Positions 6,371 to 22,790 of a DNA stretch of 64,000 bases are shown one piece after another. Made by a program: the position numbers and the translations under genes. The stretch is taken from NCBI RefSeq assembly GCF_056746865.1, contig NZ_CM163382.1, one strand, 5' to 3'. The number at the start of each line of letters is the position of its first letter. Positions within the stretch are counted from its first letter, which is position 1. The notes under the pieces were generated by a model. The model was not told the origin of the DNA. It did not search any database and saw only the letters and a list, made by a program, of their open reading frames with translations.

Positions 6371-7149
6371 TAAAATACAGTAATAGCGGCGTACATCAGG
6401 CACGCCGCTCACTCGTCCACAGATCATATACGTCATTATACTGCGCGATAACGGAGGGCTTCAGCACCCGGTCATTTCTGAGCGGGTATGAATACCATTG
6501 ATGATGCGAAGCAGCCACGGGCAGAAACGTTCTTCACAACCAGGTGCCTCCATCTTCACTGCAGTCTGAATGTGCCGGCTTGTTATCCACCAGAAATGGT
6601 ATGCTCCGGTACATGCATACCCCGGAGACTATAAACGCACTGAATCATAGCCTCCCACCTCAGCAGGAGGCAGTCAGCTTTCAGGCGGAAAAACGTTGCA
6701 GTTAAAGATCGTGAGAATCGCTGTTTCGTTGCATAGCAACCCGAACAGTTGTAGTGAAACATTTTACCTGCATCAGCACATGGTCAGGCGCCGTCTGTAT
6801 GGCGTGGAATACTGATGTTTCGGCTGATGGCAAGCCTCATTCTCTGTGGAAACAGGGGCGCGCATTAGCTTCTCAACCAAGAGAGTGTCACAAAGACAAA
6901 TATTGCTGAAAATCGCATTCATCGTTCAGGCGTGAATGCCCGGAGACAAAAGCCGCTGTCCACACAGTCCCCCTCTGACCTGAACAAAAAGCATACACAC
7001 AACAGGCTCACCTGACCCCGAAAAACCATAACTTCAGCAATACCAGTGACACCAGCACGTTACCTCAGTGCCACATCTTCAGACCGCGATCAATCTGAAA
7101 TGTGACTATCGGGGCAATATCCCTGCTTTGTGGTACACGATAACCAGAA

Positions 7150-7244
7150 AACATCCCCTGAACCGCCAGCCAGAAAGACTGGCCACAAAAGGGGTAAGCT
7201 GAAATCGTTTATGGATTACATCGACATATGCCTGGCAGAGAATG
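7150..7244 (+). pseudogene. IS21 istA remnant, 5' piece (split by the IS66 insertion)
   Basis: Translates PEPPARKTGHKRGKLKSFMDYIDICLAEN, matching the IS21 IstA N-terminal region; continues in frame at 9683 once the IS66 element is removed. Confidence 0.55.
7237..7244. repeat. 8-bp target-site duplication AGAGAATG (left copy) of IS66-family element
   Basis: Identical 8-mer immediately flanks both GTAAGCG termini (7237-7244 and 9683-9690). Confidence 0.8.
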
Positions 7245-7285
7245 GTAAGCGTGCAGTGAGAACCGTATTGACGAAGTGAAGCTGG

Positions 7286-8822
7286 TCAGGCGGGCAGAGT
7301 AACCCGCCACGGGAGCAGAGCACCCACCCGGTTCACAGGCCAGTCGGCGATGACATCAAGTACATGATGCAGATAGCGTTCCGGATCCACGCCGTTTAAT
7401 TTGCACGTCCCGATAAGACTGTACAGTGACGCACCGCGCTCACCACCATGATCCGAGCCGAAGAACAGCCAGTTTTTTCTCCCCAGACTGACCAGTCGTA
7501 GGGCGTTTTCGGCAATGTTATTATCCACCTCCACCCAGCCATCTTCTGCATAGCGGGTCAGCGCCGGCCACTGGTTCAGCGCATACCCGAACGCCTTCGC
7601 CAGTTCTGAGTGCCTTGAGAGGGTTTTCTGTTTCTCCCGCAGCCACCCCTCCAGTGACGCCAGCAGCGGCAGCACTTTTTGGTGCCGGACTGCCTGCCGT
7701 TCCTCTGCTCTTTTACCTCTGAGCTCCGACTCGATGGCATACAGCTCGCCGATCCGTTTCAGCGCCTCCTCCGTCAGGGCTGACGGGGTACGGACGTGAA
7801 CATCGTGGATTTTTCGGCGGGCATGGGCCCAGCACGCGGCTTCCTTTATATGGCCGTCGCGGTAGAGCTCGTTGAACCCGGCGTAGGCATCAGCCTGCAG
7901 TACGCCACTGAAGCCTGCAAGATGGGTCTGAGGGTGGATACCTTTTCTGTCCGGGCTGTAAGCGAACCACACTGCGGGGGCCAGCGCTGATCCGGCGTTG
8001 CGGTCGTCTCGAACGTACGTCCATAAGCGCCCGGTCTTCGTCTTCTTATTGCCCGGCAACAGCACCGGGACAGGCATATCGTCAGCATGGAGTTTGCCGT
8101 CGGTCAGGACATAGTGCTGAAGGGCTTCATCCAGCGGTGCCAGCAGACGACAACACGCATCCACCCAGCCCGACAGTACAGAACGACTCAACACTACACC
8201 CTGGCGGGCATAGATCTCCGACTGGCGATACAGCGGTATGTGCTCTGCATACTTTGAGGTCAGCACTCGGGCCAGCAGCCCCGGTCCGGCGATCCCCCGT
8301 TCGATGGGGCGCGAAGGAGCCGGGGCCTGAACGATGCGATCGCACCGACGGCAGGCATGCTTTTCACGGACTGTCCGGATAACCCGGAAGGCGCTGCGCA
8401 TCAGCTCCAGCTGTTCGGCGGCATCCTCACCCAGGTAACTCAGCGAACCACCGCACTCCGGGCAACACGGCTCAGTCGGCAGCAGCCGCTTCTCATCCCG
8501 TGGGAGTGACTCAGGGAACGGTTTGCGGGTGCGGGTCTGACGCAGCGGGCGCTGCACTGCCGGGTCATCCACCCGGCCGGTCAGCGTATCGCTTTCCTGC
8601 TGCAGCAGGTTCAGGTCAGCTTCCATTTGCGCGATACGGCGGGATACCTTTTCGGAACGACTGCCGAAGTTCATCCGGCGCAGCTTATCCAGTTGCGCCT
8701 GCAGATGGTCTATTTCGCGTTCCCGGTTGCTCAGCTTTTCCTGCAGGGCGTGGATCAACGCTTCCTGGTTCGGCCAGGCGCTGTTTCAGCAGAAGGATGT
8801 CGTCAGAAGAGGTGTCGTTCAT
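7286..8822 (-). pseudogene. tnpC: IS66 transposase TnpC with a frameshift about 17 codons from the start
   Basis: ORF 7286..8758 is the IS66 TnpC body. The N-terminus MNDTSSDDILLLKQRLAE is encoded from 8822 in another frame, with one extra C near 8770 (gaaccaggaagcg). Confidence 0.65.
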
Positions 8823-12637: not shown

Positions 12638-12839
12638 TGCAAAATGGCATCTGAATCGATCGCAGTTTGGCATTCGAATCGATCATGATTTGGCATCCAT
12701 CTCCGATCACAGTTTGGCATCACAATCGATCACGATTTGGCATGCTTCCGATCATTGATTGGCATCCTGCCAGTCACTCCGGGAATTAACTCTTTTCACC
12801 ACAGTCTCCATTGCCGTGTTTAAACCAGTGGAGACGTCA

Positions 12840-14405
12840 ATGTCCAGAAAGAGAAAATCCAGGAGCACTATGGAAACCTGTTTTAAGATTCTTCAGCTCA
12901 AGTTCGACAAGAAGCTGACTAACCGTTGTATCGGACTGACGTTACACATCAGCGCCTCAACCGTTTTTGAGGTTCTTGCCCGCTTCAAAGCCTCTTCTCT
13001 GTCATGGCCATTACCTGCTGATATATCCCATGACACGCTGGAGAAACTCATTTTTCCGCCCAAAGACACCTTTGCATCAGAGCTTGTAATGCCTGACATG
13101 TTGTACCTCGATACGGAAATGAGAAAACCAGGTGTGACGCGGCAACTGTTGTGGATGGAATACAAGGCACAGGCGGGTAACAAAGCGATGGGATACTCGC
13201 ACTTCTGCCGTTGCTACCGGGAGTGGAAAAAAACGCGACGTCTCTCCATGCGCCAGGAGCATCGTGCCGGCGAAAAGCTTTTTATCGACTTCTGTGGTCC
13301 TACGGTTCCTGTTATTAATCCGGACACCGGTGAGATACGCCGCGTGGCAATCTTCGTGGCCGTAATGGGGGCGTCCAACTATACCTACGTTGAAGCGTGC
13401 GAAGGTCAGGACATGATGTCATGGTTAAATGCCCACAGCCGTTGCCTGACCTTCCTGGGCGGCGTACCGAAGCTGCTCATCCCCGATAACCTCAGAAGCG
13501 CAGTGAAAAAGGCCGATCGATATGAGCCTGTCATCAACGACAGTTATCAGGCACTGGCTGAGCACTATGGCACGGTTATCATCCCGGCCCGACCACGCAA
13601 ACCTAAAGATAAACCAAAAGCAGAAAACGGCGTCCTCATCGTCGAACGATGGCTTCTTGCCCGCATCCGTAATGAAACCTTCCACACGCTCAGGGCGCTG
13701 AATGCGCGCCTTAGGGAGTTACTGACAGACATGAATAACCGGCCAATGAAGGGGTACGGCAATCAAACCCGTGCAGAACGCTTCCGCATACTGGATGCGC
13801 CAGCACTCTCTCCGCTGCCTCTGGCACCTTATGAATACACGGAATACAAAGCTGTGAAGGTTGGCCCTGACTACCACGTTGAATATGCCCGTCACTGGTA
13901 CTCCGTTCCACACGAACTGGTCGGTCAGCGTCTGTCACTGAAGGCGGGGCAGTCGGTGGTACAGCTCTGGCACAAGGGGCAGTGTGTGGCGCAACATCCG
14001 CGCAGCACACATGAATATAAACACACAACCAATCCGCTTCACATGCCAGAGCGCCACCGGCAGCACGGGACATGGACACCGGAACGCCTGATCGAGCAGG
14101 GAAAACGTACGGGCCCGTCCACAGGCCGGGTGGTTGAATCCATGCTGAAGGCAAAACCCCATCCGGAACTGGCTTATCGTGCAGTTCTGGGGCTGCTGGC
14201 ACTTCAGAAAAAATACGGCCCGGAACGGCTGGAAAAGGCCTGTTACGTTGCCCTGCACTATAACGCCCCTGACAGACGCTTTATCGACAATCTGCTGCGT
14301 CACCATCGGGAGAACCTGGAGCTTCCATTATCCCGCCAGGGCGAACAACATCCGGCATATGCTTCAGAGCATGAAAACCTGCGTGGTCCGGGCTACTACC
14401 ACTGA
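12840..14405 (+). CDS. istA: IS21-family transposase IstA
   Basis: Long ORF with GGAG ribosome-binding site before ATG 12840; lies between IS21-type ends, directly upstream of an IstB-like gene. Confidence 0.7.
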   Translation: MSRKRKSRSTMETCFKILQLKFDKKLTNRCIGLTLHISASTVFEVLARFKASSLSWPLPADISHDTLEKLIFPPKDTFASELVMPDMLYLDTEMRKPGVTRQLLWMEYKAQAGNKAMGYSHFCRCYREWKKTRRLSMRQEHRAGEKLFIDFCGPTVPVINPDTGEIRRVAIFVAVMGASNYTYVEACEGQDMMSWLNAHSRCLTFLGGVPKLLIPDNLRSAVKKADRYEPVINDSYQALAEHYGTVIIPARPRKPKDKPKAENGVLIVERWLLARIRNETFHTLRALNARLRELLTDMNNRPMKGYGNQTRAERFRILDAPALSPLPLAPYEYTEYKAVKVGPDYHVEYARHWYSVPHELVGQRLSLKAGQSVVQLWHKGQCVAQHPRSTHEYKHTTNPLHMPERHRQHGTWTPERLIEQGKRTGPSTGRVVESMLKAKPHPELAYRAVLGLLALQKKYGPERLEKACYVALHYNAPDRRFIDNLLRHHRENLELPLSRQGEQHPAYASEHENLRGPGYYH

Positions 14406-14421
14406 CAGAAGGAACAACAGT

Positions 14422-15177
14422 ATGAGTGATAACCTGTTAAACAAACTGACCCAACTGAAACTCCCGGCGATGGCCGGGAGCCTGATACGGCAGCGGGAAA
14501 CGCCTCAGACCTACGACGAACTGTCGTTCGAGGAAAGGCTGACGCTGCTGGTTGATGACGAGCTTCTGAGCAGGGAAAACAGCCGTGTGGCACGGTTGAG
14601 AAAAAATGCCGGCCTGAAATACCAGGCAACACCGGAAGGGCTGCGCTATCCGGCCTCAAGAGGTCTGCGGGCTGAACAGATGAGAGAACTGCTGAACGGC
14701 CACTACATAACCCACAGGAAAAACCTGCTGATAACCGGTCCGACAGGATGTGGCAAGAGCTGGATAGCCAATGCGCTGGGCGAACAGGCATGTCGACAGA
14801 AACACAGCGTCCGGTACTGTAGAACCGGGCGATTACTGGAACAACTGGCTCAGGGACGTGTTGATGGCAGCTGGCTGAAATATCTGAAACAGTTGCAAAA
14901 AATACAGGTTCTAATCCTGGACGATCTGGGGCTGGAACAGTTAAGTAACGCCCAGTGTAATGACCTTCTGGAGCTCATAGAGGATCGTTACGGACAAAGC
15001 AGCACGATAGTGGTAAGCCAGTTCCCGGTAGATAAATGGCATGGTCTGATGGAGAACCCAACAACAGCAGATGCCATCCTGGACAGACTGGTACATAACT
15101 CACACCGGGTGGTCCTTCAGGGAGAGTCACTGAGGAAAAATCCCCCGGTAGTGGAAAGCAGCGAAAAAACGCGTTAA
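14422..15177 (+). CDS. istB: IS21-family helper ATPase IstB
   Basis: Walker A LITGPTGCGKS and Walker B VLILDDLG motifs; ATG 14422 with AGGAA upstream. Confidence 0.85.
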   Translation: MSDNLLNKLTQLKLPAMAGSLIRQRETPQTYDELSFEERLTLLVDDELLSRENSRVARLRKNAGLKYQATPEGLRYPASRGLRAEQMRELLNGHYITHRKNLLITGPTGCGKSWIANALGEQACRQKHSVRYCRTGRLLEQLAQGRVDGSWLKYLKQLQKIQVLILDDLGLEQLSNAQCNDLLELIEDRYGQSSTIVVSQFPVDKWHGLMENPTTADAILDRLVHNSHRVVLQGESLRKNPPVVESSEKTR

Positions 15178-15276
15178 AAAGCGGTAGAAAAAGTTAAGTT
15201 CCCGGTTGATCGAATGGATGCGAATCGCTGATCGGACTTCGATGCCAATCCGTGATCGAATAGAGCGGAATACGCA

Positions 15277-15920
15277 TCCGTCTGAATGGCCATGGTCACA
15301 GCATGGTTATCACTGACCTGCCCGGGGTGGGCGAGAGCCGGGACAGGGATGCAGAGTATGAAGCCCTGTACCGTGACATTCTGCTCGAACTGGACCTGGT
15401 ACTGTGGCTGATTAAAGCCGATGACCGTGCCCTGTCTGTGGATGAGTATTTCTGGCGACACATCCTGCACCGGGGACATCAGCGGGTACTGTTTGTGGTG
15501 ATGCAGGCCGATAAAACGGAGCCCTGCCATGAATGGGATATGGCCGGTATTCAGCCTTCTCCCGCACAGGCACAGAACATTCGCGAAAAAACGGAGGCGG
15601 TATTCCGTCTGTTCCGGCCCGTACATCGGGTTGTTGCCGTATCGGCCCGCACCGGCTGGGAACTGGATACGCTGGTCAGTGCGCTCATGACAGCACTTCC
15701 CGACCATGCCGCCAGTCCCCTGATGACCCGCCTGCAGGACGAGCTGCGCACGGAGTCTGTCCGGTCTCAGGCCCGTGAACAGTTTACCGGTGCGGTGGAC
15801 CGGATATTTGACACGGCGGAGAGCGTCTGCATTGCCTCTGTTGCACGCACGGTTCTGCGCGCCGTCCGTGACTCGGTGGTCTCTGTTGCCCGCGCGGTAT
15901 GGAACTGGATTTTCTTCTGA
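15277..15920 (+). pseudogene. YeeP/YfjP-like small GTPase gene, C-terminal part
   Basis: Continues the split GTPase: G3 motif DLPGVGES, then LVLWLIKADDR and VLFVVMQADK. Confidence 0.7.
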
Positions 15921-16137: not shown

Positions 16138-18534
16138 ATGCACGAAAAGAACATCGCCCTGCTTTGTGATGAAGCCGACCGACTTTTGCAACTGAACATT
16201 AATCTGCTCCGGCAAATGGTTGAGGAGCCAGATGTGTTATCTGACAGTAAGAACGAAAACAGACTGCTTTTTGATAAACAGAAAGCACTGAAAAGAATTG
16301 AGGAGCTGGAGGGCGAACAAATCAAAACCGCCCGCAGGGAGATGGTGCTGGCTGTTGTCGGCACGATGAAAGCAGGCAAATCAACCACCATCAACGCCAT
16401 TGTGGGGCAGGAAATTCTGCCTAACCGTAACCGCCCCATGACCTCTGTACCGACGCTCATCCGCCACGTTCCCGGAAAAACTGAGCCGGTTCTCCATCTG
16501 GAACATATTCAGCCTGTCCGCAATTTATTAATCACACTGCAGGAAAAACTCGCCACCCCGGCAGGACAGCAGGTCGCACAGACCCTGCAGCAAACCGGGG
16601 ATACCCGCGAACTGCTGGATATTCTGACGGATGATGGCTGGCTCAAAAATGAATACCACGGGGAGGAGGAAATCTTTACCGGACTGGCATCGTTAAACGA
16701 TCTGGTTCGTCTTGCTGCGGCAATGGGGACTGAATTTCCTTTTGATGAATACGCAGAAGTGCAGAAACTGCCGGTGATCGACGTGGAATTCAGCCATCTG
16801 GTGGGGATGGATGCATGCCAGGGAACACTCACACTGCTGGATACCCCCGGCCCTAATGAGGCCGGACAACCGCAGATGGAAGTGATGATGCGGGATCAAC
16901 TGCAGAAAGCCTCTGCGGTTCTGGCTGTGATGGATTACACCCAGATGAACTCAAAAGCGGATGAAGACGTCCGTAAAGAGCTTAATGCCATTGCTGACGT
17001 ATCAGCCGGCCGCCTGTTTGTACTGGTCAATAAATTTGATGAGAAAGACCGCAATGGCGATGGGGCAGATGCCGTACGCCAGAAAGTTCCGGCAATGCTG
17101 AACAGCGATGTGCTGCCCGCCTCCCGCGTTTATCCCGGATCCTCACGCCAGGCATACCTGGCTAACCGTGCGCTTCATGAGTTACGGAAAAACGGAACCC
17201 TTCCTGTTGATGAAGCCTGGGTCGATGATTTTATCAGAGGTGCCTTCGGTTGCATGAAAAAAGAATACGTCTGTAAAGACAGTGAACTGGCAACTGAAGG
17301 GGCGACAGACCTGTGGGAAGGCTCACTTATCGATCAACTGATAACGGAAGTCATACAGAGCTCACATTCCAGAGCTGCGGCACTGGCGGTTGACTCTGCC
17401 GCCGCAAAACTGATGCAGAATGCAGAAAATATCAGTGAATACCTGTTGTTACGCCATCAGGGGCTACAGCAAAGCATTCAGTCACTGCAGTCGCATATCA
17501 CCAGCCTGCTTGCGGATATCCGGGAAATCGCGGACTGTCAGGAGCAGATGACCACTGATGTCAGAATGGCCATGGAGGAGATCGATACTAAAACCCGGGA
17601 ATTACTGACGGGGGTCTGCACCTCACTGGAAGAGGAGCTGAATGACTATTTCAGAAGCGGTAAACGCAAAGAACAGCAAATGCTGGAGGAAGAAGACGCA
17701 GAACAACGAAGGTCTCAGTCCGGATTATGGGGGAAAATTTCTCAATGGTCCGGTATCAACAACCAGGGCCGGGAGGATTACAGGAAACGAGATTTTGCCC
17801 CGGACAGCCCCGAAATAAAATTCAGTGATCGCAGGGAAGCCCTTGAACTGATGACGCAAATCGAATCGACCGTGACCAGCCTGCACCGTGAGGCTGAAGC
17901 ACAGTTCCGGCCTGAGCTGGAGAAAATCGTCAGCGGGATTGAAACAGGTTTTCGTGGCACGGCCCTGTACGCCACAGAAAACATTGCCGGTCGCATCAAT
18001 GCCCGCCTGGAGGATGAGGGCTTTACCGTAAAAATCAGTTTTCCGGCAGTCAGCCAGTTACAGACCCGGCTCGCGGTAAAAATAAATCTGAGTGCGCTTA
18101 TGGAGGAAAGAACGGAGACCGTCACCCGTCGCCGTCGGCAGAGTGGCGTATGGGGAACCGTTTGTCGATGGTTTGGCACCAGTGACCTGGGCTGGGAAAA
18201 CTATGACGAGGATGTGAGTCGCAGCGTGATCAATATCAACAAGGTCAGAGAGGAAGTTATGTCACTGACCCGGGCATATTTCGGGGAGCTGCAGGCATCC
18301 ATTGAGCAGGATATTAACCAGCCCGTCCGCCAGGAAATCGATGCCTTTTTCTGCGCATTCAGGGAGAAAGTTGAACAACTGCGTAACACGCTGATTCAGA
18401 GCTCTGAAGATCATAAACGCGATCAGCAGGCGCAGGAACGGCTTACCGGGCGACTTCAGGCATTAAATGAAAGGGTTCCTGAGCTCATTACTGACAGTAA
18501 GGCGCTGAGGGAAGAGCTGGAGACAATGCTGTGA
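16138..18534 (+). CDS. dynamin-like GTPase, CrfC/YjdA-like (798 aa)
   Basis: G1 P-loop GTMKAGKST, G2 Thr in MTSVPT, G3 DTPG, G4 NKFD, in dynamin order, followed by a long helical region. N-terminal block MVLAVVGTMKAGKSTTINAIVGQEILPNRNRPMT closely matches recalled E. coli CrfC. AGGAAGG ribosome-binding site. Confidence 0.85.
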   Translation: MHEKNIALLCDEADRLLQLNINLLRQMVEEPDVLSDSKNENRLLFDKQKALKRIEELEGEQIKTARREMVLAVVGTMKAGKSTTINAIVGQEILPNRNRPMTSVPTLIRHVPGKTEPVLHLEHIQPVRNLLITLQEKLATPAGQQVAQTLQQTGDTRELLDILTDDGWLKNEYHGEEEIFTGLASLNDLVRLAAAMGTEFPFDEYAEVQKLPVIDVEFSHLVGMDACQGTLTLLDTPGPNEAGQPQMEVMMRDQLQKASAVLAVMDYTQMNSKADEDVRKELNAIADVSAGRLFVLVNKFDEKDRNGDGADAVRQKVPAMLNSDVLPASRVYPGSSRQAYLANRALHELRKNGTLPVDEAWVDDFIRGAFGCMKKEYVCKDSELATEGATDLWEGSLIDQLITEVIQSSHSRAAALAVDSAAAKLMQNAENISEYLLLRHQGLQQSIQSLQSHITSLLADIREIADCQEQMTTDVRMAMEEIDTKTRELLTGVCTSLEEELNDYFRSGKRKEQQMLEEEDAEQRRSQSGLWGKISQWSGINNQGREDYRKRDFAPDSPEIKFSDRREALELMTQIESTVTSLHREAEAQFRPELEKIVSGIETGFRGTALYATENIAGRINARLEDEGFTVKISFPAVSQLQTRLAVKINLSALMEERTETVTRRRRQSGVWGTVCRWFGTSDLGWENYDEDVSRSVININKVREEVMSLTRAYFGELQASIEQDINQPVRQEIDAFFCAFREKVEQLRNTLIQSSEDHKRDQQAQERLTGRLQALNERVPELITDSKALREELETML

Positions 18535-19436
18535 CTTCACCATTTATTCAACAAATTGCTGATAACCGGGTATGTCAGGTACTCACCTGTCTTCCTGAAA
18601 AATTTGTGGTTGATTTCGCAAACGGAATCGATGTTGCACAGGAGCATATCCGCACGGCCGGAGAGCGCACGTTCTTCCGGCGTTTAAAAGAGGGGCTGAC
18701 CGGCGAAGGCGCTGCACGGCAGAATGCCATCAATGCGTCGCTTGCACAGGGCGTTGAGGCGTCCCTGCGCTGGCTGACGGAGATGACAACGTCACTTGCC
18801 ACCACAAACTACGCGATTACCCGGGTAAACGACAGGGTCAGTTCACTGGTCAGTGATACAGCCAGGCTGGCGCATTATTCCGCAGATACGCGGGAGCAGT
18901 TACTCACCCTGGCCGATCAGGTTCACCATAAACTGAATCATCTTGAAGAAAAACTCCACCGTGTTGACCAGGTTCAGCGGGCGCAGTTACATCTTGAGCA
19001 GATATTCTCATGGTGGAGCGCCGGGCGATATGCGTCATTTTCCCCTGCCGGACGTTGTTATGTGGCACTTGAAGAGCTTCGCTGGGGCGCGTTTGGTGAT
19101 GTGATACGTCAGAGCGAAACAGGCCAGGTTAACCAGCTACTGGATATTCTCAGACATAAAGCATTAACGCAGATGGCACAGGAGAGTGGCGGTAGTGCAA
19201 CCGTGCGTCTGAACACTCTGGACTGGCTTGGTGGTCAGGGCCGGGAGCAGGCAGATAACGAGTGGCATGACGCGATTAACTGGCTGGGAGACTGGTGCAG
19301 TGAAGAGCAGCATCCGGTGATCTGGTCAACCACGCAGGCTGCAGAACACTTACCGGTTCGCATGCCTCGCCTCTGCTCTGCAGAACGCCTCTCTGAAAGT
19401 ATGGTCGATGAAATATTTCAGAAGGGGGCTGCATGA
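18531..19436 (+). CDS. YjcZ-like partner protein of the dynamin-like GTPase (301 aa)
   Basis: GTG start overlaps the upstream stop (ctGTGA); GGAG 10 bp upstream. Size and position mirror the crfC-yjcZ pair; family assignment not verified. Confidence 0.55.
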   Translation: MTSPFIQQIADNRVCQVLTCLPEKFVVDFANGIDVAQEHIRTAGERTFFRRLKEGLTGEGAARQNAINASLAQGVEASLRWLTEMTTSLATTNYAITRVNDRVSSLVSDTARLAHYSADTREQLLTLADQVHHKLNHLEEKLHRVDQVQRAQLHLEQIFSWWSAGRYASFSPAGRCYVALEELRWGAFGDVIRQSETGQVNQLLDILRHKALTQMAQESGGSATVRLNTLDWLGGQGREQADNEWHDAINWLGDWCSEEQHPVIWSTTQAAEHLPVRMPRLCSAERLSESMVDEIFQKGAA

Positions 19437-20503
19437 GTACAGAAATGAAAACGGGGCTGGTGCTGTCCGGTGGCGGGGCGGTGGGCGCTTATCAGGCGGG
19501 AGTGGTTAAGGCACTGGCAGAGTGTGGTACACAGATCAGCATGGTTTCAGGGGCCAGCATTGGCGCATTCAATGGTGCCATTATCGCGGCCTCTCCCGAT
19601 CTGTCAGAAGCTGCCGTACGCCTGGAGGCGCTCTGGGATCATCTGGGGAATAATCAGGTGCTGTCGGTAAACAGATTGGTTTACTTTTCATTGCTGAAAA
19701 AATTGTTCCAGGCAATGAACCTCTGCCAGATCCCCGGACGTGCAGGAGCACTGCTTACGACGCTTCTTCGCCATATATCGACAATCAACGGGTTTGACAA
19801 TCTGATGGCTCAGCCGTTGTTGTCAGATGAGCCCCTGACAGCGCTGATGGATCATTATCTTGATACTGATGCTCTGGCAGACGGGCTACCGCTGTATGTG
19901 TCGCTGTACCCCACAGAAGGGGGCATGCAGGATATTATTGACTGCATTCGTGCTGAACTGGGTGTCGGAACCACGAAAAACGCCGTTTTTCAGCATATCC
20001 AGAGCCTGCCCCGCGGACAGCAGAAAGAGGCTCTGCTTGCGTCAGCCGCGCTGCCCCTGCTGTTCCGTCCCCGTGAGGTTCAGGGGACAATGTTCGGTGA
20101 TGGTGGTATGGGAGGATGGCGAAATATGCAGGGAAATACCCCTGTGACGCCTCTGGTCGATGCCGGATGCAATATGGTGATTGTGACGCATCTGAGTGAG
20201 GGTTCTTTATGGGATCGCCAGGCTTTTCCGGACACCACAATCCTTGAGATCCGTCCCCGGAAAAGGCTGAAATATGCAGGTGATGGTGGCAACAGCGGCG
20301 GTCTGCTCAGTTTTACATCGGCACATACCGACGCCTGGCGTCAGCAGGGCTATGAAGACACGATGCTGGCGATGGAGCATATCCGGAAACCGCTGGCAGC
20401 ACGTCAGGCACTGACCCGGTCAGAGGCGGTATTGCAGAAAAGCCTGGATATAACGGAAGAGGCAGATTTGGCACTGAGAAACGCGATGGCCCGGATTAAA
20501 TAA
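19433..20503 (+). CDS. patatin-like phospholipase (356 aa)
   Basis: Oxyanion motif LSGGGAVGAYQAG, nucleophile elbow G-A-S-I-G (Ser42, nt 19556-19558), catalytic Asp in FGDGG (Asp223, nt 20099-20101). ATG overlaps the upstream stop (gcATGA). Confidence 0.85.
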   Translation: MSTEMKTGLVLSGGGAVGAYQAGVVKALAECGTQISMVSGASIGAFNGAIIAASPDLSEAAVRLEALWDHLGNNQVLSVNRLVYFSLLKKLFQAMNLCQIPGRAGALLTTLLRHISTINGFDNLMAQPLLSDEPLTALMDHYLDTDALADGLPLYVSLYPTEGGMQDIIDCIRAELGVGTTKNAVFQHIQSLPRGQQKEALLASAALPLLFRPREVQGTMFGDGGMGGWRNMQGNTPVTPLVDAGCNMVIVTHLSEGSLWDRQAFPDTTILEIRPRKRLKYAGDGGNSGGLLSFTSAHTDAWRQQGYEDTMLAMEHIRKPLAARQALTRSEAVLQKSLDITEEADLALRNAMARIK

Positions 20504-20836
20504 AGACGCCCCAAAGAAACGCCACCGCCTGTGGTGGTGTTTTTCCTGTCTGGTGTTATTGAAAATATTTTCATATATATATTACCTGAGAGAAAGTTTT
20601 ACCCCTCACCTGTCAATTCACTCACTGGAAATTTAATTATGAAATTACCTGTAAAGTTATTAATGAGCCTTATATCTCTGGTCAGCGTTATTGCACGTGC
20701 CGGGGAATATAAAAATTACAGCCGGGATGAAATAAAATACTGGCGATATACATCATACAAGGGGGGGAAACTTCCGGAAGGTTTCACTGATGAGAAATTT
20801 TCCAGCGCCATTTACAACGGAAGAATATTTACAATG

Positions 20837-21322
20837 AAACGTTTACATACCCTTATGTTATTTCTGGCGGTTCTGTTCACGGGCTTTAACTTTAACGCAG
20901 AAGCGGCTACCGTAAAACAAGCTCTTAGTTGTAACCCGGAAGCCTGGGCTGAACAACCTGGAGCGTGTCCATCAACGTACGAGTTGTACGAAGGTGACGC
21001 TACCTACAAAGCCGCTATCGACAAAGCATTAAAACCGGTCGGACTGAGCGGCATGTTCGGTAAAGGCGGCTATATGGATGGCCCTGGTGGAGGTATCACG
21101 CCAGTAAACATTAACGGTACAGTCTGGTTCCAGGGCGACGGTTGCAAAGCCAATACCTGCGGCTGGGACTTTATCGTAACACTCTATAACCCAAAAACCC
21201 ATGAAGTTGTTGGCTACCGTTACTTTGGTTTAGATGACCCGGCCTACCTGGTTTGGTTCGGTGAAATTGGCGTGCATGAATTCGCGTATCTGGTGAAAAA
21301 CTACGTAGCTGCGGTTAACTAA
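20837..21322 (+). CDS. secreted Ivy-family-like protein (loop CKANTC in place of Ivy CKPHDC)
   Basis: Signal peptide MKRLHTLMLFLAVLFTGFNFNAEA. Mature protein resembles E. coli Ivy in KAA...KGG and CKxxxCG blocks. ORF extends upstream to 20531/20639 with a second signal-like segment, so start is uncertain. AT-rich DNA. Confidence 0.45.
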   Translation, partial: KRLHTLMLFLAVLFTGFNFNAEAATVKQALSCNPEAWAEQPGACPSTYELYEGDATYKAAIDKALKPVGLSGMFGKGGYMDGPGGGITPVNINGTVWFQGDGCKANTCGWDFIVTLYNPKTHEVVGYRYFGLDDPAYLVWFGEIGVHEFAYLVKNYVAAVN

Positions 21323-21337
21323 TTTAAGGAGTCTATC

Positions 21338-21748
21338 ATGAAAACTTTTATCAAAACTTTACTCGTTGCTGTAACTATTCTGTTCTCTGTCTTCGCTACT
21401 GCGAAACAAGTAAAACTGCCAAATAACATCAAATACGTTAATACTACAGAAGCGTTTTCCTGTACCGAAATTGACGGTATGAATTGCCAGACAAAGAATC
21501 AGTTCAACTATAAAGATAACAGCTATGTTTTCGTGCTTGAACGTGGTGGTGCCTGGTGCTACGACTACACTGTCTCGGTAGTTAACCTGAAAACCGGGAA
21601 AGCACAAATGATTGAATACGGGGACAATCAACTGTGCTCAGGTAGCAACAAACCGTTCTTCGAAATCAAAAATGGCGTACCGACGGTAGGAGTCATCGAC
21701 ACATCCGGAAAACCTGTCGTTGTAGCCCAGGACAAACTTAAAATCTAA
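21338..21748 (+). CDS. small secreted Cys-containing protein, unknown function
   Basis: Signal peptide MKTFIKTLLVAVTILFSVFATA; GGAG before the ATG; 15 bp after the previous gene. Confidence 0.5.
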   Translation: MKTFIKTLLVAVTILFSVFATAKQVKLPNNIKYVNTTEAFSCTEIDGMNCQTKNQFNYKDNSYVFVLERGGAWCYDYTVSVVNLKTGKAQMIEYGDNQLCSGSNKPFFEIKNGVPTVGVIDTSGKPVVVAQDKLKI

Positions 21749-21891
21749 GGAGTAAACCATGCGTTTCTCTGCACATTATTAATATCAAAGGTAAATACAG
21801 CCCCAGCCATTGTTACCGGAAAGCCGCTTAATGCGTGGCTCGCCAGTGAAAGGCCTCTCAGACAATAAACCTTATTCATTTCACCCGTCAG

Positions 21892-21925
21892 GCCGCGTCT
21901 TCTCCGGGAGACGCGGCTTTTTTCA
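21892..21925 (+). terminator. rho-independent terminator after the secreted-protein genes
   Basis: gccgcgtct...agacgcggc stem followed by tttttt. Confidence 0.6.
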
Positions 21926-21968
21926 TTTATTGCACCAGTAAATCTTAACCACCGATAAGGAGCAAAGT

Positions 21969-22790
21969 ATGCGATTAGCAAGTCGTTTTGGTTATGCTGC
22001 AAACCAGATACGCCGTGACCGTCCGCTGACACATGAAGAACTGATACGCCATGTACCCAGTATTTTTGGGGAAGACCGGCACACCTCCCGCAGTGAACGG
22101 TATGCGTACATTCCCACCATTACCGTCCTGGAAAATCTGCAGCGGGAAGGCTTTCAGCCGTTCTTCGCCTGCCAGACCCGTGTGCGCGACCCGGGCCGCC
22201 GGGGATACACAAAACACATGCTGCGTCTGCGGCGGGCCGGAGAGATAAACGGAGAACATGTCCCTGAAATTATTCTGCTCAACTCTCATGACGGTACCTC
22301 CAGCTACCAGATGCTGCCGGGTTACTTCAGGTTCGTCTGCCAGAACGGGTGCGTCTGTGGCCAGTCTCTGGGGGAAGTGCGTGTTCCACACCGGGGAAAT
22401 GTAGTGGAGAAAGTTATCGAAGGGGCTTACGAGGTGGTGGGCGTGTTTGACCGGATAGAGGAGAAGCGTGATGCCATGCAGTCGCTGGTCCTGCCGCCAC
22501 CGGCACGCCAGGCGCTGGCACAGGCGGCACTGACTTACCGTTATGGTGACGAACATCAGCCCGTCACCACCGCCGACATTCTGACGCCGCGACGCCGGGA
22601 GGATTACGGTAAGGACCTGTGGAGCGCATATCAGACCATCCAGGAGAATATGCTGAAAGGCGGGATTTCCGGTCGCAGTGCAAAAGGAAAACGTATCCAT
22701 ACCCGGGCCATTCACAGCATTGATACCGACATTAAGCTCAATCGCGCATTGTGGGTGATGGCAGAAACGATGCTGGAGAGCCTGCGCTGA
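21969..22790 (+). CDS. DUF932-family protein (YfjQ/YafZ-like)
   Basis: 273-aa ORF in the conserved CP4-type order before the antirestriction gene; AAGGAG ribosome-binding site. Confidence 0.65.
   Translation: MRLASRFGYAANQIRRDRPLTHEELIRHVPSIFGEDRHTSRSERYAYIPTITVLENLQREGFQPFFACQTRVRDPGRRGYTKHMLRLRRAGEINGEHVPEIILLNSHDGTSSYQMLPGYFRFVCQNGCVCGQSLGEVRVPHRGNVVEKVIEGAYEVVGVFDRIEEKRDAMQSLVLPPPARQALAQAALTYRYGDEHQPVTTADILTPRRREDYGKDLWSAYQTIQENMLKGGISGRSAKGKRIHTRAIHSIDTDIKLNRALWVMAETMLESLR

Follow-up and report, generated by a model that had tools for sequence, protein, structure and literature searches.

A putative giant-phage cassette of two exported-protein genes in an Escherichia coli CP4-44-type island, one of them encoding a divergent homologue of the lysozyme inhibitor Ivy

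Main finding

In a stretch of 64,000 nucleotides (nt) of contig NZ_CM163382.1 from assembly GCF_056746865.1, which is called the window in the following, two small genes for exported proteins, here termed gene 1 and gene 2, lie downstream of a patatin-like phospholipase gene. The source of the window is Escherichia coli, and positions 20400-22000 are 100% identical in many complete genomes. The Prokaryotic Genome Annotation Pipeline (PGAP) labels both genes as 'hypothetical protein', and an original prediction made from the letters of the sequence alone had drawn attention to the pair. Judged from sequence comparison, positions 20827-21780 are a two-gene cassette captured from the exported-protein block of an SPN3US-like giant phage and placed in the cargo slot of an E. 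coli island of CP4-44 type, which adjoins sbmC/dacD/sbcB. The reading favoured here, with moderate confidence, is that gene 1 encodes a phage-derived inhibitor of the Ivy type which acts on a peptidoglycan-cleaving glycosidase, and that gene 2 encodes a separate exported protein from the same block. The features on which this reading is built are the following.

20827 to 21780, plus strand: cassette common to SPN3US-like giant-phage genomes, 77.6% identity to positions 6994-7942 of the compared locus L015
20639 to 20833, plus strand: decayed 5' end (65 codons with a signal peptide of its own) of a separate gene for an exported protein of 180-185 amino acids (aa), recognised from the PGAP annotation, the comparison with the L003 island type and the junction
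20834 to 21322, plus strand: gene 1, precursor of 162 aa, exported divergent Ivy-family homologue, assigned from the MKRL start of the homologues, the link to the Ivy profile and the ratio of nonsynonymous to synonymous substitution rates (dN/dS)
21143 to 21160, plus strand: codons of the Cys104-Cys109 loop (CKANTC), homologous to the lysozyme-plugging loop CKPHDC of Ivy
21326 to 21331, plus strand: ribosome-binding site AAGGAG of gene 2, which follows the gene 1 stop at a distance of 3 nt and precedes the ATG by 6 nt
21338 to 21748, plus strand: gene 2, exported four-Cys precursor of 136 aa, family PHROG 8968 / SPN3US gp084, assigned from a hidden Markov model (HMM) match, phage homologues and dN/dS
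21759 to 21782, plus strand: stub of seven codons (MRFSAHY*) with an AAGGAG of its own, remains of the start of the phage gene that comes next (the 129-aa gene 2 paralogue, p129 / SPN3US gp083 family), recognised by alignment with L015 and L008

Gene 1 is a remote homologue of Ivy

Pairwise comparison of the gene 1 protein with E. coli Ivy by BLASTP aligned the loop region only (46 residues, pairwise E 0.001). When ten E. coli alleles were combined into a profile and this was run against 1.84 billion representatives, 59 proteins were obtained, many of them full length, with loops which include CEAHNCG, CKPHACP and CQPHNCS. The alignment linking the family to Ivy consisted of the window protein and 29 relatives. 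Among these 30 members, 25 matched the Pfam family Ivy (PF08816) at E<=1e-3 and 28 at E<=0.1, the profile of all 30 found the solved Ivy structures 1GPQ and 1XS0 with E 1.3e-12 and 4PS6 and 1UUZ with about 2e-9, and hhalign of the same profile against E. coli Ivy gave a probability of 97%. With the mature gene 1 protein as query, tblastn found Klebsiella plasmid genes annotated as 'Ivy family c-type lysozyme inhibitor' (32.6% identity, 95% coverage, E 4e-10). A sister E. coli allele, 72% identical and with the loop CKAHAC, matched the NCBIfam Ivy model NF007443 with E 3.9e-4 and 20 bits, the curated cut-off being 180. The best eight matches of the gene 1 structure model in a Foldseek search of the PDB were all Ivy proteins (probability 0.85-0.99, template modelling score 0.4-0.5). 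It is thus well supported by these sequence and profile comparisons that gene 1 is a divergent variant of the Ivy family, the homology being remote; it is not filed as an Ivy orthologue because its loop departs from the strict Ivy motif. A search of the PDB by sequence found nothing significant for gene 1, neither gene 1 nor gene 2 gave an HMM or fold match to MliC/PliC, PliI or PliG, and literature searches on the protein accessions and on phage-encoded Ivy yielded nothing specific.

The motif GCKANTCGW occupies codons 103-111 of the 162-aa form. Profile alignments place Asn107 opposite His60 of Ivy and Ala106 opposite Pro59, which agrees with the claim in the original prediction that CKANTC stands in place of CKPHDC and that the His is gone. 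The two cysteines of the loop, C104 and C109, are invariant in the 30-member alignment, where the consensus loop is CExHNCG, the His being retained in most relatives (CE[AP]HNC). The alleles of E. coli carry the loops CKANTC, CKANAC, CKSNAC, CKSDAC and CKAHAC, the Asn forms being found in the largest clusters, and a few relatives outside E. coli also have no His at this place (CEANNC, CEAGNC, CEPNNC). In Ivy the loop was found by mutagenesis to be essential for the inhibition of lysozyme, as reported in PMC4262234, which cites Abergel 2007.

The start of gene 1

The open reading frame (ORF) 20531-21322 begins with GTG and contains two signal-like segments, the first being MKLPVKLLMSLISLVSVIARA from the ATG at 20639 and the second MKRLHTLMLFLAVLFTGFNFNAEA from the ATG at 20834. 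The PGAP gene model of 227 aa (WP_000775500.1) starts from the ATG at 20639, so that the ORF has forms of 227 and 263 aa. In five other contexts, homologues of gene 1 have 160-161 aa and start at MKRL. An intact gene for a 180-aa exported protein is found between the patatin gene and the Ivy-like gene in the L003 island type (positions 7098-7640 there), and the first 63 residues of the window extension are 49% identical to the N-terminus of that protein (E 4e-18). The junction at which the stub of the 180-aa gene is fused with gene 1 is the ribosome-binding site of gene 1. An internal deletion has therefore joined the stub in frame to gene 1, the ORF of 227 or 263 aa being an artefact of this event. 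As the homologues begin at MKRL, the upstream stub matches the 180-aa gene and the junction lies at the ribosome-binding site, the functional start of gene 1 is assigned to the ATG at 20834 and not to 20531 or 20639. In a product started at 20639 the second signal sequence would become an internal hydrophobic segment, and the Ivy-like domain of such a product would probably fail to reach the periplasm. An unclear true start, owing to a second signal-like segment upstream, had been noted before; the segment is indeed there, as the remnant of another gene, and the uncertainty is settled in favour of 20834.

The architecture of the 162-aa form comprises a signal peptide (residues 1-24), an N-terminal module with Cys33 and Cys45, and the Ivy-like domain. 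The predicted Sec signal consists of MKR, a hydrophobic core and AEA|A, and is accompanied by four conserved cysteines (read from the sequence). The 180-185-aa protein to which the stub belonged (L003 7098-7640; L021 913-1470) has a C-terminal coiled, Cys-bearing tail ending in ..EHCRRYGNC; no Pfam or PHROG family was found for this upstream gene, and there was no match to it in the phage block described below.

Gene 2 belongs to a phage protein family

The junction between gene 1 and gene 2 is operon-like and is kept in the phage alleles. The gene 2 protein has a signal peptide ending in ..FATA|KQ and exactly four cysteines (C42, C50, C74, C100), which are conserved among the relatives; the 136-aa protein with signal peptide and four Cys described earlier is present as such in the sequence of 21338-21748. 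It was also described as having no recognisable family. This is correct for Pfam and NCBIfam, and Pfam has no family for any of the 17 aligned relatives either, but it does not hold in general, as gene 2 is a member of PHROG 8968 / SPN3US gp084 by HMM comparison (E 2.6e-45, residues 1-131 of 136), an uncharacterised phage family. By tblastn, Salmonella, Escherichia and Erwinia giant phages of the SPN3US-like group were seen to have relatives with 31-34% identity. The structure model is all-beta with seven strands and a predicted local distance difference test score (pLDDT) of 80-90 over residues 50-136, and a fold search of AFDB50 returned only uncharacterised enterobacterial 'secreted proteins'. 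In direct searches of Pfam, NCBIfam, PADLOC and, by sequence, the PDB, the sole match of gene 2 was to the JUQZ family of bacteriocins; it was rejected, since it stays below the threshold (E 0.022; 15 bits, the cut-off being 40).

Origin of the cassette from a giant-phage block

A gene 1 allele of 59% identity occurs in elements of about 222 kb, and the link to phages rests on these elements, which are metagenome contigs and one Enterobacter ludwigii record filed as a plasmid and are collinear with SPN3US. There the allele belongs to a block of six small exported-protein genes: two YfjT-family members, a gene for 131 aa, the Ivy-like gene itself, the homologue of gene 2 and a paralogue of gene 2 with 129 aa. 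After the block comes an SMC-like gene, and patatin is absent. It is collinear with gp086-gp080 of SPN3US with protein identities of 46%, 31%, 48%, 33%, 42% and 55%. The Ivy-like slot is the exception to this collinearity and is occupied in SPN3US by the unrelated 163-aa exported gp085.

The alignment of the window with L015 ends 32 nt past the gene 2 stop, within the seven-codon stub, which is taken to mark the right edge of the captured fragment. Upstream of the Ivy-like gene, other island types of E. coli have kept the 3' end of the phage gene that precedes it. As these decayed flanking phage genes sit inside the islands, they indicate a transfer from phage to island. Gene 1 itself is a mosaic when compared with L015 and L018, with 97% identity to the phage-type allele over nt 61-120 and 90-97% identity to an island-type allele over the last 180 nt, and the megablast coverage classes of gene 1 in E. 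coli genomes break near codon 47.

The phage block lies at positions 6598-9309 of L008 and is also seen in L015 and L012. Its six consecutive small exported proteins contain Cys, and the two YfjT-family members (PF27224) are of the same family as yfjT in the CP4-57 prophage of E. coli K-12. CP4-type islands and SPN3US-like phages thus seem to have several exported small proteins in common.

Distribution and selection

The pair is intact in 2247 of 5426 complete E. coli genomes (41%), O157:H7 included. Alleles which are 58-93% identical retain the reading frame, and in pairwise comparisons dN/dS amounts to 0.10-0.26 (gene 1) and 0.14-0.25 (gene 2). Since divergent alleles keep the frame and dN/dS is 0.10-0.26, the ORFs are real genes. 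When gene 1 was divided into segments, pN/pS was 0.24-0.46. Both genes are under purifying selection throughout.

The pair and the patatin gene

Two hairpins of terminator type delimit the region.

20515 to 20544, plus strand: terminator-like hairpin found by pattern scan, 12 bp followed by a U-run, 12 nt after the patatin stop; folding energy (dG) -17 kcal/mol, z -3.4, none of 200 shuffles as stable
21890 to 21919, plus strand: strong intrinsic terminator ending the two-gene unit, 13 bp followed by a U-run, dG -24.5 kcal/mol, z -5.4, 49 nt before the DUF932 gene

The first hairpin is probably the end of the operon of dynamin-family, RdcB and patatin genes which precedes the pair. The second is strong, as expected from the clean terminator which had been noted after the pair. 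The description of the two genes as AT-rich fits the spacer and gene 2 (36-46% GC) and does not fit the core of gene 1, which has about 50% GC.

As the pair lies directly downstream of the patatin gene on the same strand, and 1822 of the 2247 complete genomes with the pair have it contiguous with patatin, the two proteins might be periplasmic immunity or accessory factors of the phospholipase, or of the whole dynamin/RdcB/patatin system. This is very improbable. The patatin stop is followed by the first hairpin and then by a 290-nt AT-rich spacer with the decayed third gene. The giant-phage genomes carry the pair with no patatin, dynamin or RdcB gene nearby, and in the L003 island type, found on 864 contigs, patatin is followed by the 180-aa gene and then by the Ivy-like gene, with gene 2 missing. 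The synonymous divergence (dS) between alleles is 0.6-2.3 for the cassette as compared to 0.10-0.30 for patatin and 0.28-0.50 for DUF932, which points to different histories. The N-terminus of the patatin protein, MSTEMKTGLVLSGGGAVG, has no evident signal peptide, so that a periplasmic immunity protein would not meet it. Because of the discordant dS, the L003 type without gene 2 and the phage block without patatin, the contiguity is ascribed to linkage inside a single island lineage. That the pair serves the phospholipase as immunity or accessory factors, one of the two options raised in the original prediction, is thus unlikely, and its alternative of an unrelated secreted pair, independent of patatin, is the better description.

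Proposed function and competing explanations

Both proteins would be exported by Sec and become oxidised in the periplasm, where gene 1 may insert its Cys104-Cys109 loop into the cleft of a peptidoglycan glycosidase, either a lysozyme or a lytic transglycosylase, in the manner of Ivy. The preferred target is probably not a vertebrate c-type lysozyme, because His60 is replaced by Asn while most relatives keep the His. Because of the phage origin a bacterial or phage muramidase or transglycosylase would be a likelier target, for example the enzyme with which an incoming phage pierces the wall; this would amount to an exclusion similar to that by Spackle. Gene 2 would be a periplasmic protein in its own right, taken from the same block of phage genes, and is not an obligate partner of gene 1. 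Ivy proteins have been described to inhibit lytic transglycosylases as well (PMC3660660, PMC10139938), and with Spackle of phage T4 a phage-encoded periplasmic inhibitor of a tail lysozyme is known which provides a precedent for superinfection exclusion (PMC7677548).

A number of results weigh against an Ivy-type inhibitor from a phage. The gene 1 protein has no match in NCBIfam at E<=0.1 and none in Pfam even at E<=10, PF08816 included. Accordingly, the Ivy-like character which had been claimed for the ORF ending at 21322 stands by way of the family profile and the intermediates, and failed in the direct PF08816 search that had been suggested for checking it. In PADLOC no family was found at E<=0.01 for gene 1, nor for gene 2. 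A profile built from the E. coli alleles only is weakly linked to Ivy (hhalign 32%, PDB E 1.2), and the homology therefore rests on intermediates. The AlphaFold model of gene 1 is mediocre, with a mean pLDDT of 64 and values below 50 in the loop, and the Foldseek E values are 0.01-0.1. The residue which plugs lysozyme, His60, is absent from the loop, which makes an inhibitory activity at most putative. The pN/pS of the loop segment is 0.28 and not raised, and there is no local signal of diversifying selection or an arms race. No Ivy-like gene was found by tblastn in the deposited phage collection, and a promoter scan identified none in 20545-20830 and no plus-strand site upstream of either start. 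Finally, Ivy and MliC are only weak inhibitors of the lytic transglycosylases of E. coli (PMC10139938).

Three further explanations have to be weighed against this reading. Gene 1 could be a second Ivy, i.e. a periplasmic inhibitor of vertebrate c-type lysozyme which contributes to the resistance of E. coli to host lysozyme. The homology to Ivy, the predicted periplasmic signal peptide and the equal length of the disulfide-closed loop are in line with this, as is the frequency of gene 1 in commensal and pathogenic E. coli, including O157:H7. It is nevertheless unlikely: in the loop which is essential according to PMC4262234 (citing Abergel 2007), His60 is Asn and Pro59 is Ala, the scores are far below the cut-off of the NCBIfam Ivy equivalog (20 bits versus 180 for the sister allele and no score for the window allele), and the context of phage and mobile element does not suggest a role in host interaction. 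A regulation of the cell's own lytic transglycosylases, that is a control of autolysins as proposed for Ivy in bacteria which do not O-acetylate their peptidoglycan, could be brought into connection with a gene with an SLT domain about 6 kb downstream in the phage block. This is quite unlikely, given that E. coli Ivy is weak on MltA and MltB and dispensable under overexpression of lytic transglycosylases (PMC10139938), that gene 1 is accessory and absent from 59% of complete genomes, and that carriage on a mobile element does not fit a housekeeping control.

The cassette might also be hitch-hiking phage debris which has no present function in E. coli. Decayed gene stubs on its flanks, the fusion of gene 1 to a pseudogene remnant, the failure to detect a promoter in the scan, the loss of gene 2 in one island type and the frequency of truncated copies would all agree with decay. 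Against it speaks that both ORFs are intact in 2247 genomes, that dN/dS is 0.10-0.26 among alleles and stays in this range also between the E. coli island alleles, and that the ribosome-binding sites, all cysteines and the terminator are kept, which renders the debris explanation decidedly improbable.

The reading as an Ivy-type inhibitor of a peptidoglycan-cleaving enzyme can be extended to a wider, doubtful proposal, according to which SPN3US-like phages and the CP4-type islands which borrow from them export small disulfide-bonded proteins to the periplasm, among them an Ivy-derived inhibitor the loop of which has been retargeted to the peptidoglycan-piercing enzymes of incoming phages or to the muramidase toxins of competitors. 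If this were true, a so far unrecognised module for anti-lysin exclusion would be present in the periplasm of 41% of E. coli strains, with gene 2 as a further inhibitor representing a new fold class.

Neighbouring genes of the island

The gene order of the island around the cassette is as follows.

Start of the island gene order: IS21 element inside a YeeP-like GTPase gene
16138 to 18534: dynamin-family gene
18531 to 19436: RdcB/YjcZ-family gene
19433 to 20503: patatin-like phospholipase gene
Between patatin and DUF932: gene 1 and gene 2, the two exported-protein genes
21969 to 22790: DUF932 gene, followed by an antirestriction gene, yeeS, yeeT and cbeA/cbtA

The three genes at 16138-20503 have overlapping stop and start codons and form an operon for a dynamin-family, an RdcB/YjcZ-family and a patatin-like protein. 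The dynamin-family protein is CrfC-like and matches NF007368 with E 1e-166, yet remains below the cut-off of that model. In some otherwise identical strains the RdcB-family gene has an internal stop (L001 7132-8037, strain 4/2-1, annotated as a pseudogene); it is intact with 301 aa in the window. The operon occupies the variable cargo slot of an island of CP4 type and looks like a candidate defence system. PADLOC matched no system in it, with only weak matches to LeoBC and phospholipase effectors, and nothing specific was found in the literature on a system of dynamin, RdcB and patatin.

In the region 12759-15920 the IS21-family element, with istA at 12759-14405 and istB ending at 15177, splits the YeeP-like GTPase gene, the C-terminal part of which is the ORF 15303-15920. 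In other strains the insertion sequence is located elsewhere or within the dynamin gene. An Rfam scan of 20300-22200 at E<=1 gave no match.

Significance

More than 2,000 complete E. coli genomes, O157:H7 included, carry both genes as mere 'hypothetical protein'. Gene 1 can now be named as a remote Ivy homologue and its gene model can be corrected, the annotation of 227 aa being a fusion with a pseudogene remnant, and a block of exported proteins in giant phages can be given as the source of the cassette. For an anonymous pair of genes there is now the hypothesis of a periplasmic inhibitor of a peptidoglycan-cleaving enzyme which is borne by a mobile element. Should the target be an enzyme of a phage or a competitor, the role of the Ivy family would widen from the evasion of host lysozyme to conflicts between microbes; should the gene 1 protein be inactive, it would represent a natural loop variant which helps to define the requirements of the Ivy loop. 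That the neighbourhood of patatin is incidental is of relevance to work on the dynamin/RdcB/patatin operon.

Comparison with known systems

The closest solved relatives of the gene 1 protein are the Ivy proteins (YkfE; PF08816) of E. coli and Pseudomonas aeruginosa with the structures 1GPQ, 1XS0, 1UUZ and 4PS6. Like these it is small and predicted to be periplasmic with a Sec signal, and the core is alike, consisting of a strand, a six-residue loop closed by a disulfide (C-x4-C followed by G) and another strand. It differs from Ivy by the substitutions His60 to Asn and Pro59 to Ala, which turn CKPHDC into CKANTC, by an additional N-terminal module with a second conserved Cys pair (C33/C45, 'C..CPY' in the relatives), by the lack of a direct HMM match and by its location on a mobile island or phage, while Ivy is found on the core chromosome. 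Ivy-family proteins with deviating loops are known, among them Ivyp2 of P. aeruginosa and the members with 'CExxDxC' (Abergel 2007 as cited in PMC4262234), and gene 1 shares with them that the loop is not CKPHDC. For Ivyp2 the inhibition of the lytic transglycosylase MltB has been reported (PMC10139938, citing Clarke 2010). The gene 1 subfamily has the consensus CE[AP]HNCG and the N-terminal Cys pair.

Outside E. coli, gene 1 has its nearest relatives in two-domain proteins of Klebsiella annotated as 'Ivy family c-type lysozyme inhibitor' (WP_228706714.1; P0098, P0099), with E 1e-21 and 30-33% identity; more distant relatives are chromosomal in other Proteobacteria. Such two-domain Ivy-like proteins, on plasmids and islands of Klebsiella and in other hosts, occur in the same class of island as gene 1, between genes for YeeP-like GTPase, DUF932 and WYL proteins and the RadC and CbeA-CbtA genes. 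P0099 has the loop CEANNC with an Asn at the His position as in gene 1. Unlike gene 1, the two-domain Klebsiella proteins end in a further Cys-rich domain, about 150 aa long, with a weak match to DUF7908. Two-domain relatives of 312-316 aa (L013 3905-4843; L028 3795-4745) occupy the same slot of CP4-like islands, and one of these islands also has DarT/Macro. It was considered that gene 2 might correspond to the C-terminal domain of the two-domain Klebsiella proteins, which would have been a fusion link with similar Cys spacing; hhalign (0.9%) and BLASTP (E 1.5) did not bear this out.

For gene 2 the counterpart is SPN3US gp084, which has the same length, four cysteines and the same position upstream of the genes gp083-gp080 (SMC-like), the identity to gp084 itself being only 31%. 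Spackle of T4 (gp61.3), which inhibits gp5, resembles gene 1 by functional analogy only, in that it is phage-encoded, small, periplasmic and disulfide-bonded and has a signal peptide (PMC7677548). In sequence and fold it is unrelated, Spackle being a helical bundle with an allosteric mechanism.

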